Positions 16,389 to 62,811 of a DNA stretch of 64,000 nucleotides are shown one piece after another. The translations under genes and the position numbers were made by a program. The notes below the pieces were generated by a model. That model saw only the letters and a list, made by a program, of their open reading frames with translations. It ran no database searches and was not told the DNA's origin. The DNA lies in contig OY969763.1 in the NCBI GenBank assembly GCA_963702845.1, positions 5,696,001 to 5,760,000 on the forward strand, given 5' to 3'. The DNA comes from an uncultured Verrucomicrobiae bacterium (GTDB lineage: Bacteria; Verrucomicrobiota; Verrucomicrobiia; Limisphaerales; Palsa-1400). The first letter of the stretch is position 1, and each line of letters starts with the position of its first letter.

Positions 16389-16494
16389 GGAACAGTTGAA
16401 AAAACGTGCAAAAACAGGGGGTAAAATGACGTGTCGAAACTCACGAAACGCAAGCGGGCGTGGGGAATTCCGATTTTGAGTGTGTTTGATAGAT

Positions 16495-16556
16495 ATTTTT
16501 TTGTAGGCGTTAGTAGGTGACAGTAGGTGATAGTAGGCGGCAGCCGGTGGCAGAGG
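16495..16556 (-). repeat. 10-bp period array (core CCTAC on minus strand) ending in an A-tract
   Basis: Plus strand: T-tract then TTGTAGGCGT TAGTAGGTGA CAGTAGGTGA TAGTAGGCGG CAGCCGGTGG CAGAGG. Confidence 0.85.
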
Positions 16557-16717
16557 GGCTCGGGTGATCACGCTTGAAAGAGATGAGTCTAACAAACGGC
16601 GCAACGAGCGCGAAGAGCGGGATGAATGCGCTGTCGCCGCGCCAAGGCACACCGCTGGTGTGATTTGGCTCCCTTGCTCCCGGTTGGCGATGTTGTTTGT
16701 CGTTTTCATCGCCTGGT

Positions 16718-32711: not shown

Positions 32712-33347
32712 TTAGGGAGCCGGTGCCGGGATGACGATTTTTTGGCCGACTTGCAATCGGTTCCAATTAACCGAGGGATTCGCATCCTGAACCTTTTTCA
32801 TACTGATTTTCTTCATCCCTTCTGATTGGAATTTTCTATTAAAGGCCTGAACGATCGCCGAAAGCGTTTCACCGTCTTGGACAGTGTGCGGAAAACCATC
32901 CGTAGTGGCCGGAGCATCGGCGGTGGTAGTCGGCTTATCCTTGATCACCGGCGCGGGACGGGACGACCCCGCCTTTAACACCGCCTTTTCGATGTCCGCA
33001 ATCGACTTCTTGATCTCATCGGAAATCATCTGCTTGTCCGACTCGCGCTTTTTGTCGACCTCCTGGATTTTATCGCGCAACAGTTTCATATCATCGTGGA
33101 CCGACGAATTACTATTTGCCTTCGCCTGATCCTCGCTGATTTTGCTGAGGCGTTCCTCGAGCGCGTTGATCTTGTGCTGCAACGAAGCGTTGGCGGCCTG
33201 CAGCGCTTCCACATCGGCGCTCATGCGTTTATAGCGCTCCTCGGCGTCCTGTCTATCGGCCGCGGCGGCAGCCGTGCTGGCATTCTGGGCAAAAATGGGC
33301 AATTGCAGCGCGAGCAAAATTGAGGTGAGGCACAACATCCTTTTCAT
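32712..33347 (-). CDS. Coiled-coil protein with C-terminal LysM domain
   Basis: Signal peptide, coiled coil, HTVQDGETLSAI..DANP..RLQVGQKIVIP. Confidence 0.88.
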   Translation of the reverse strand: MKRMLCLTSILLALQLPIFAQNASTAAAAADRQDAEERYKRMSADVEALQAANASLQHKINALEERLSKISEDQAKANSNSSVHDDMKLLRDKIQEVDKKRESDKQMISDEIKKSIADIEKAVLKAGSSRPAPVIKDKPTTTADAPATTDGFPHTVQDGETLSAIVQAFNRKFQSEGMKKISMKKVQDANPSVNWNRLQVGQKIVIPAPAP

Positions 33348-33497: not shown

Positions 33498-33506
33498 AAT
33501 GGGCAG

Positions 33507-33740
33507 AAAAAAGTGGTAAAAAACTACTTTGACCTGGTTTGACTGGCCTTGACTAGGTTTGACAAATCCAGAACCAGTCAAACCCCGGTCACAGTAGCAG
33601 TCGCGGTGATTGGCAGTCGCAAAAAAGGGTAAAAAACTACTGCTAAATGGTGCTAAGTAGTGCGAAATGGTGCTAACTAGTGCTAAAAATCGGGAACTTT
33701 TAGCACTCGTTTGGCAGTTACATTCGCAGTAGGCATTGCA
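33507..33740. repeat. Two tandem ~114-bp modules, each leader + decamer array + 13-bp spacer + inverted hexamer
   Basis: Leader AAAAAAG(T)GGTAAAAAACTAC; (T/C)TTGAC x4 then GTCAAA; TGC(T/G)AA x5 then TTAGCA. Confidence 0.9.
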
Positions 33741-33870
33741 CTGTATTGAACTTCGGTCAGGCGGCAGGTTTAGTTTTCTAACGTTCTGGTGTTTAGTCAT
33801 ACACAAGAGGTTAATCTCTCGGTTGGTTGGAAGCTTCTTAGCAGTTCTGGTGTCCTAATAAGAATGAAAG

Positions 33871-34341
33871 ATGCGCGATAAAAATTTTATAGCCGAACAT
33901 CGCGGTGGGTTGCTGAAGATGCGTGATCACCGATTGCTCGCGAAGTGGGCCGCCGATTGTGCGGAGCATATCTTGAACGCGGTCTGGATGAATAAAGAAG
34001 ACCTGCGGCCATTCCGAGCGGTGGAGCAGGGGCGGGCGTGGTCGCGTGGTGAGAACAGAGTTGGTGATTGCCAAAAAGCTGCGGTTGCGGCCCATGCCGC
34101 CGCTCGGGCCTGCAAAGATCCGGCTGCGATTGCTGCGGCTCGTTGCGCGGGCCACGCCGTCGCGACGGCGCATATGGCGGATCATTGTTTTGGTGTTGGC
34201 TATGCTTTGAAAGCTGCAACGCTCGCTGGTCTCGATGTCGAACAGGAGCGGGCTTGGCAAAAAAGGCATCTGCCAAGACAAGTTCGTAAACTGGTTATCA
34301 CCGGACAAGCCCGCCGACGAGCATTGGGCAGGAGTATGTAG
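33871..34341 (+). CDS. Imm5-like putative immunity protein
   Basis: DHRLLAKWAADCAEH, AAVAAHAAAR, AGHAVATAHMADH, ERAWQ. Confidence 0.8.
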   Translation: MRDKNFIAEHRGGLLKMRDHRLLAKWAADCAEHILNAVWMNKEDLRPFRAVEQGRAWSRGENRVGDCQKAAVAAHAAARACKDPAAIAAARCAGHAVATAHMADHCFGVGYALKAATLAGLDVEQERAWQKRHLPRQVRKLVITGQARRRALGRSM

Positions 34342-34363: not shown

Positions 34364-34454
34364 TTCAATCGTCGCTACGCGACGAGTCGACGATCGACCG
34401 TTCTGATCCGTGGAATGAATTCCACGGCTACCTTCAAGAACCGCTACGCGGTTC
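34364..34454. repeat. Multi-hairpin REP-type element
   Basis: CGTCGC-TAC-GCGACG; CCGTGGAA-TGAA-TTCCACGG followed by CTAC; AACCGC-TAC-GCGGTT. Confidence 0.75.
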
Positions 34455-34502
34455 AACAATCATCCCGGCGGACGAAGAATTTGGTTTGAGCTCACAAAAA
34501 AG

Positions 34503-57330: not shown

Positions 57331-57615
57331 ATCCCCCAAATGTAGCAACCCCACTTGGACAAAGGCTGTCCAAGTGAAATTTTTCCGCCTTCGATGGTAG
57401 TCGCTCAGGCTCAGCATGTTTTCCGCTGTCGCATGCACTTACTCCGAATCTAAAAGCGGGTGTTTCGAACTTGATTACGACGGAGGTTACTTCAAACTCA
57501 GGCAACTATTACTGCGGGGCAATCAAGCGACCAACAAGTTTCAGCCCGACATCTAATTTAGGGTGCCGAAGAGTAGTTCATAATGCATATCAACCAATTG
57601 ACGGTCTCGCAGCCT

Positions 57616-62740: not shown

Positions 62741-62811
62741 TATCCGCAGTTAACCGCAGTCGCAGTAGATATCACTAAATCGCACCAGATCGCAGTAGTT
62801 TTTGATCACTT
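62741..62811 (-). repeat. Decamer array with the same leader as the 33.5-kb modules (hexamer TGCGAT)
   Basis: Minus strand AAGTGATCAAAAACTAC TGCGAT CTGG TGCGAT TTAG TGATAT CTAC TGCGAC. Confidence 0.8.

Follow-up and report, generated by a model that had tools for sequence, protein, structure and literature searches.

What kind of element is formed by two repeat modules that share one scaffold while the repeated hexamer differs between them? They lie in the window, by which we mean the entire 64,000-nt stretch analysed (G000:C1:5696001-5760000, G000 being the 6.03-Mb genome of the window), and were originally predicted to be tandem binding-site cassettes occupying positions 33507 to 33740. The two leaders, which start 114 bp from each other at 33507 and 33621, the arrays, the 13-nt spacers and the inverted GTCAAA (33577) and TTAGCA (33700) are all present as described. 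The likeness noted between the "tails" of the modules is also real, but each tail is in fact a second inverted copy, 11 bp on (GTCACA at 33588; TTGGCA at 33711), and while the modules do lie inside the predicted interval, the feature continues to 33864. The assumed polarity had to be reversed: the supposed leader is a T-tract at the 3′ end, and a predicted promoter at 33864-33800 heads the unit. The two modules form the tail of a larger, gene-less unit of 358 bp, running from 33864 to 33507 on the minus strand, with the following parts and neighbors:

33507..33864, minus strand: whole gene-less unit, with C-box promoter (predicted), leader, module B, module A* and T-tracts, delimited by the C-box alignment and the sequence
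33835..33864, minus strand: C-box, with palindrome TTCTTA(T)-N16-CTAAGAA; it is predicted to be a site for an activator or an operator and overlaps position -35 (48 non-redundant sites aligned, 10 of them in G000)
33808..33813, minus strand: -10-like hexamer TAACCT, 17 nt past the AAGCTT that ends the C-box (TA-N3-T at that position in the alignment)
33798..33800, minus strand: ATG, 7 nt past the -10 box, a leaderless-type start (ATG at +30 to +33 in 42 of the 48 sites)
33700..33730, unstranded: module B, inverted arm: TTAGCA, TTGGCA (11-bp period) and a degenerate third copy
33687..33699, unstranded: module B, 13-nt spacer, fixed in length and free in sequence (13 nt in 23 of 25 modules)
33641..33686, unstranded: module B, direct arm: five copies of TGC(T/G)AA with a 10-bp period
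33621..33640, unstranded: two phased A-tracts and CTAC (T-tracts on the unit's own strand)
33577..33604, unstranded: module A*, inverted arm: GTCAAA, GTCACA and a degenerate third copy
33564..33576, unstranded: module A*, 13-nt spacer
33528..33563, unstranded: module A*, direct arm: four copies of (T/C)TTGAC with a 10-bp period; this variant of the frequent TGCGAC type recurs in locus L211
33507..33527, unstranded: two phased A-tracts and CTAC, 3′ end of the unit
32712..33347, minus strand: neighbor outside the unit, a LysM-domain gene co-directional with it
33871..34341, plus strand: neighbor outside the unit, an Imm5-like gene

The ATG at 33800 (minus strand) opens a frame of 109 codons, which was considered as coding and rejected, since it has no Pfam match and the period of 10 shifts the frame with copy number; it is probably non-coding. 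A sigma-70 promoter scan of the unit, which requires a -35 box, returned no promoter, and a terminator scan called no terminator at the tracts. The Rfam check suggested in the original prediction gave no match at the gathering score (best E 1.1, far below threshold), so that assignment to a known RNA family was dropped. Beyond the unit, a REP-like palindromic repeat with matches in the sister species G001 lies between the Imm5-like and GntR genes (window 34365-34460).

The proposed genome scan for leader plus array did yield further copies. A profile of the two found 17 modules at 12 places in G000 (best E 7e-27; 11 of the 17 are profile seeds), and the corresponding pattern had 22 matches there, overlaps counted, with none for the reversed-pattern control in 31 genomes; judged against this and the shuffle controls, the modules are not chance occurrences. 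The genome holds 216 period-10 clusters, as compared with 22 for period 11 and 7 after shuffling in 6-nt blocks, and an A5 or T5 tract borders 148 of 229 arrays (random expectation 58 +/- 6). The main module types are A (TGCGAC) and B (TGCTAA), which are stacked at five G000 loci in either order, and the window pair consists of B and a TTTGAC variant of A. Instead of a local duplication with a single swap, we see two pre-existing module types paired in a stack; the real coherent change is that from TGCGAC to TTTGAC, which is also found at another host site in L211, where two inverted GTCAAA copies accompany it. The strict module scaffold does not extend past the genus, being present in 3 of 31 family genomes. 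Elsewhere in the window, a degenerate A-type module without an inverted arm, one of the 17, lies at 62758-62810 on the minus strand (G000 position 5758810), behind the start of an ilvD-like gene, and is followed by a GTTACA repeat module that is also present at 4107000; further period-10 arrays of other types, adjoining A/T tracts, occupy 2097-2285 and 16493-16558.

The inverted copy was claimed to track the direct copies, and it does: counted by eye, a matching inverted copy lies 12-14 nt on in 16 of the 17 G000 modules. This count is the test of the claim, because the larger parse of G000 and fetched loci (30 rows, reduced to 25 modules by removal of five chance rows) required an inverted copy within one mismatch and is only descriptive. 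It distinguishes five types, namely TGCGAC with near variants, TGCTAA, TGCAAT, TTTGAC and a 9-bp-period TGCAA, in agreement with the idea of phased, putatively protein-binding cassettes that exist in hexamer variants; the types recur in relatives with matching inverted copies. Spacer sequences have a mean pairwise identity of 0.47, and the innermost pair of facing hexamers is perfect in 16 of the 25 modules and mismatched in 9. One change in L205 stands both in the last of the direct copies and in the first of the inverted ones, whereas the mismatch persists in four sister copies; this is the pattern expected from template switching between inverted arms. As described in PMC8604942, such switching homogenizes inverted arms with no need for selection. 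Between G000 and the sister species G002, an orthologous B+A pair differs at 5 of 84 hexamer positions and at 10 of 26 spacer positions, the latter divergence being near the synonymous difference of the capsid gene described below (41.5%); copy-to-copy homogenization could add to the low hexamer divergence. In the 9-bp module, a 1-nt deletion runs coherently through all copies. Hexamer types would likely arise by slippage in the direct arm combined with template switching between the arms, stacking and swapping of modules would likely come from unit-unit recombination, and selection would act mainly on geometry.

The C-box is a 30-bp imperfect palindrome. Its first pattern had seven matches in G000, all on the same strand as an A or B module and 160-570 bp from it, and in G002 an A module lies beside each of the six matches. 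A matrix built from 48 training sites recovered nine strong G000 sites, adding two to the seven already placed at modules; at the head of the 9-bp module there is a tenth C-box, shorter than the rest. Eight of the ten therefore head modules, and the other two head pairs of genes for a small terminase (TerS) related to Mu gp27 and a large terminase (TerL). The alignment of 48 non-redundant sites (L163, L201, L202 and L212 excluded), to which the window's minus-strand site belongs, reads TTCTTAR-N16-CTAAGAA-GCTT, then 15-17 nt, TA-N3-T and the ATG, and from this we infer a promoter of the activator type whose start is leaderless. In two comparisons the C-box is followed by extra DNA, but it aligns as a promoter, and the candidate integron attI-like unit was dropped once the -10 box and ATG had been seen. 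No verrucomicrobial LexA-type motif lies within 300 bp of any of the 10 C-boxes. C-boxes are present in 5 of 31 family genomes and in 3 of 301 order genomes searched, and at 18 loci in genome collections and 44 in metagenome collections, where titled records are mostly Verrucomicrobiota assemblies. A loose pattern had 70 matches in IMG/VR, which we take as chance since neither a module nor TerS is nearby. One metagenome contig (L194/L195) has three C-boxes within 1.6 kb, suggestive of tandem units, and many units begin, past the C-box, with an ORF of 65-68 aa, presumably KTSC-like (L160, L182, L185, L198, L208, L220, L222, L321).

The two new C-boxes lie 63 bp before the TerS gene at 5840969 and 650 bp before that at 4753165; TerL follows in both cases, and both sites are outside the matrix training set. 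About 130 bp after the stop of the TerL at 5838310 there is a two-copy A-type remnant. The linked terminases belong to families PHROG 426, 5909 and 2 and to Pfam families; the assignment of TerS to the Mu gp27 family rests on a weak Pfam match (PF11985, E 0.003) and on PHROG 426 (E 1e-5 to 8e-10), its fold and ring shape are predicted from family annotation, and a PDB sequence search with the TerS alignment found no real match. Among 59 C-box sites in public contigs, kin and duplicates included, a period-10 array lies downstream in 42 and a TerS gene within the retrieved DNA in 12; in 10 of these 12, the array shortly precedes TerS. In L214 and L215 the TerS ATG is immediately preceded by arrays of TGCAAA and TGCTAG, which resemble type B, and L323, from another family, has the same layout. 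In G000, an array lies within 400 nt of 8 of 13 gp27-like genes, as compared with 123 of 2423 long ORFs. The original comparison with iterons fails: the arrays are accompanied by no initiator or recombinase gene, and the linked genes are terminases. It is also doubtful that the hexamers are "specificity variants" for different proteins: close TerS relatives can bear different arrays. In a tree of 88 TerS domains, the array type follows the phylogeny loosely; for instance, the related TerS of G000 4753165 and L243 bear CCGAAC and ATCACC arrays, respectively. Such counter-examples led us to reject a one-to-one TerS-array code, and the one clade with AT(A/C/T/G)AAG arrays is explained by shared descent. 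No full TGCGAC or TTTGAC module stands directly before TerS among the 88 domains. A 369-aa gene without a PHROG family (G000:C1:5843184-5844293; dN/dS about 0.15 against G002, indicating purifying selection) accompanies A modules in three species, and a similar C-terminus occurs in L227 beside an array and TerS. Five prophage- or satellite-like islands in G000 (near 134, 1715, 2249, 4296 and 4828 kb) carry replication genes and a second-family TerS-TerL pair, thereby accounting for five of the nine second-family TerS, and have neither arrays nor boxes.

Other TerS genes, the head genes and further array units are preceded by two other promoter-like boxes, the T-box with 27-28 copies and the P-box with 33. 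The T-box is a palindrome, CACTTGGACA-N5-TGTCCAAGTG, with a -10 box and ATG, found at window positions 57352-57376 and at 27 further G000 sites; one T-box unit with three arrays precedes recA (4979324 to 4978828). The P-box is a 9-bp-phased TTTCCC run before TTTTTGAC, and its 33 G000 sites (e.g. 5239816, 2597562 and 5227034) stand in front of the head genes, of four TerS genes and one DnaB-like gene, and of many array units that have no gene. With a boxA-like motif included, arrays lie downstream of a box in 51 of 90 cases and upstream in 4, and 76 of 229 arrays are covered by boxes, compared with 5 +/- 3 at random. G000 has one head module (C1:5239999-5250045), located among host genes with P-boxes in front and conserved in five relatives; it codes for a protease, an HK97-type capsid protein, an adaptor, a portal, a TerL in two frames and a TerS piece. 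The capsid gene is single-copy and 89-90% identical across three genus members (dN/dS 0.10-0.12); over six genomes dN/dS is 0.10-0.16 and the gene order is the same, which indicates that the gene is kept under purifying selection in the genus. The dN/dS rows for the gene beside 4107413, the frame of which is doubtful, and for two TerL comparisons of only 26 codons were left out. No tail genes were recognized beside the head module in the ORF listing, and no Mu-type capsid was found. Two IMG/VR phage contigs contain a homologous TerS-TerL-portal-protease-capsid block with no 10-bp array near TerS (the TerS alignment retrieved 2 matches, a single-protein query 0), and the A, B and T-box patterns had 0 matches in IMG/VR; these two results mean that the arrays did not arise by plain inheritance of pac sites from phages.

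Comparison of orthologous loci, as proposed originally, revealed filled, empty and swapped sites between sister species. Three sites empty in G000 hold units in G002 (L069, L071, L079), where the inserted DNA ends about 10-45 bp from the C-box and near the tracts. In two aligned filled/empty pairs the spacer DNA is replaced and there is no target duplication, although a short one could have decayed, as these sites are old; the third has 1.1 kb of extra DNA. An rpsA-like site carries type A in G002 and type B in G000, and other units persist at orthologous sites across species. The window's unit is absent upstream of the LysM orthologue in G001, which retains its own -10-like box, and next to the Imm5-like gene in G002, which is located elsewhere; both contexts are rearranged. 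At 7 of 8 loci examined in the fragmented G001 and G002 assemblies, TerS homologues adjoin other host genes. One host spacer can be occupied by a TerS unit in one species and, in another, by an array unit that lacks a gene (L231 versus G000:C1:625859-626382; L238 versus G000 940 kb), and such spacers represent recurrent slots. The unit and site comparisons identified no enzyme of movement.

The modules, then, appear to make up the 3′ half of one gene-less copy of a unit that is scattered over the genome and consists of the palindrome with its predicted promoter, a variable leader, and 10-bp-phased arrays adjoining A/T tracts. Complete copies carry a Mu-gp27-like TerS gene, and we see about an even chance that the arrays dock host-kept TerS, acting as operators and possibly as packaging starts. 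Docking is suggested by the complete copies, which place the same predicted promoter before terminase genes. The observations themselves comprise the layout, the common C-box, the array-terminase link, the presence/absence and swaps, the constraint on hexamers and spacing, and the conserved single-copy head module. If the arrays are docking sites, an activator at the C-box would switch on TerS-TerL, and the phased arrays, bent by their A-tracts, would be wrapped by oligomers of TerS. These oligomers would thereby silence the promoters of the units themselves and label places on the chromosome where cutting begins and from which DNA is packaged into the HK97-type head encoded by the host. The small terminase of SF6 has been modelled (PMC4737164) to select bent DNA via a ring of weak HTH contacts, and such contacts would keep phase and tracts while tolerating hexamer drift. 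Against docking, arrays are missing near TerS in the two related phage contigs, and array type follows the TerS tree only loosely; an array lies within 400 nt of only 1 of 9 second-family TerS and 5 of 17 TerL ORFs; two separate frames make up the TerL at 5838310; the capsid query matched only 6 of 31 family genomes, with several TerS in all 10 relatives tested; and the C-box is retained at 8 of 11 loci, although a gene-less docking site needs no promoter. It is possible, if doubtful, that the whole represents a domesticated, distributed packaging system, with many stand-alone terminase pairs, one head module, three shared promoter boxes and hundreds of kept phased arrays, which would transfer DNA from chosen chromosomal addresses and in which arrays would spread and swap because they are transfer start points.

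The same layout could instead describe a portable regulatory cassette, in which the C-box promoter and operator arrays put the downstream host gene under a phage-derived regulon and the binder, TerS-like or another HTH protein, regulates without packaging. At 10 of 11 G000 loci the unit is oriented into the beginning of a host gene, but selection against antisense transcription also predicts such co-direction, the downstream genes have no common function, and in sister species the same genes are found without a unit or with one of another type, the G001 LysM gene having a -10 box of its own. The excess of arrays downstream of boxes and the T-box unit preceding recA would fit regulation as well, as would the precedent of Gram-positive phages, in which repeats upstream of terS are bound by specific activators (PMC3753634); in that RinA/Ltr case, however, the repeats lie upstream of the promoter, and the arrays here are downstream. 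On balance we regard pure regulation as rather unlikely. The filled and empty sites, the changed neighbors of most sister-species TerS homologues, and the coherent deletion in the 9-bp module, which is hard to reconcile with strict phasing, would all be natural for a selfish MITE-like repeat, spreading by means of the C-box and tract as its ends, its arrays devoid of host-valued binding and homogenized by slippage and by template switching, which operates without selection (PMC8604942). Yet there is constraint on the hexamers and on the length of the spacer, whose letters drift, orthologous sites keep units across species, and no linked transposase is seen; assignment to MITEs or non-autonomous IS was rejected for lack of terminal inverted repeats and target-site duplications, and we consider selfish spread quite unlikely to be the explanation. 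More improbable still is a small RNA or attenuator, in which a predicted leaderless transcript would fold direct against inverted copies into a long hairpin at a U-tract, with pairing as the cause of covariation. The promoter, ATG and U-tract have the polarity of a transcript, for the minus strand of 33500-33800 the computed folding energy is -82.5 kcal/mol, with z -3.7, and module folds have z-scores of -1.4 to -9.3, but folding is expected of any inverted repeat; moreover, the inner pair is often mismatched, the loop is fixed in length and free in sequence, many C-box units outside the genus have an array and tract without an inverted arm (e.g. L164, L174, L210, L216), and the terminator and Rfam searches were negative. 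A plasmid or satellite iteron origin was also discarded, as no replication initiator adjoins the arrays, their neighbors are varied host genes, and the arms, between which such an origin would have an AT-rich unwinding region, are 13 nt apart.

Returning to docking by terminases, its closest parallels come from phages and from elements that co-opt their heads. Gene transfer agents (GTAs) have head and packaging genes that are vertically kept, selected and split over loci with shared promoter boxes; known GTAs have tails and one terminase and, to our knowledge, package without dedicated dispersed sites. The head and packaging genes described here are likewise vertically kept under purifying selection, judging by the capsid gene; unlike GTAs, there are many terminase pairs, and no tail was recognized beside the head module. 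The linked TerS belong to the gp27 family of the phage Mu gp27/gp28 pair (PF11985, PHROG 426), but the partner head genes are HK97-type and the window's unit is gene-less. At the pac site of phages SPP1 and SF6, direct repeats and bendable DNA extend across the promoter and gene start of the small terminase (G1P), which lowers transcription from that promoter (PMC4737164). Complete units similarly have repeats at or beside the TerS gene; however, those phages have one site per genome, while here about 230 arrays of dozens of types are distributed over the host chromosome, many units, including the window's copy, are gene-less, and arrays are absent beside TerS in two related phages. In SaPIs, a non-phage small terminase directs packaging from pseudo-pac sites in the host chromosome (PMC6687093); these are chance homologues, whereas the present units are multi-copy, promoter-headed and constrained, and lack a linked integrase or replication module. 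The RinA/ArpU/LtrC activator repeats are short direct repeats near terS that occur in specificity variants upstream of the promoter (PMC3753634), and differ from the arrays, which are downstream of a predicted promoter, stacked and provided with an inverted arm.

Searches of the openly available literature returned no description of these units. What is new is a C-box promoter by which the modules are tied to two pairs of TerS and TerL genes, a series of hexamers that covary with their inverted copies, orthologous sites that are filled, empty or swapped, and a conserved capsid gene sharing a promoter box with TerS units. An odd repeat thereby becomes a defined unit that connects, within one genome, phased arrays at many places with orphan pairs of terminase genes and with a capsid gene under selection. 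The natural series of TGCGAC, TTTGAC, TGCTAA, TGCAAT and 9-bp TGCAA on a single scaffold is a ready panel for the question of sequence versus shape in small-terminase recognition. If terminases do dock at the arrays, bacteria can hold addressable packaging sites of their own, as opposed to the random packaging of GTAs or transduction from chance pseudo-pac sites.
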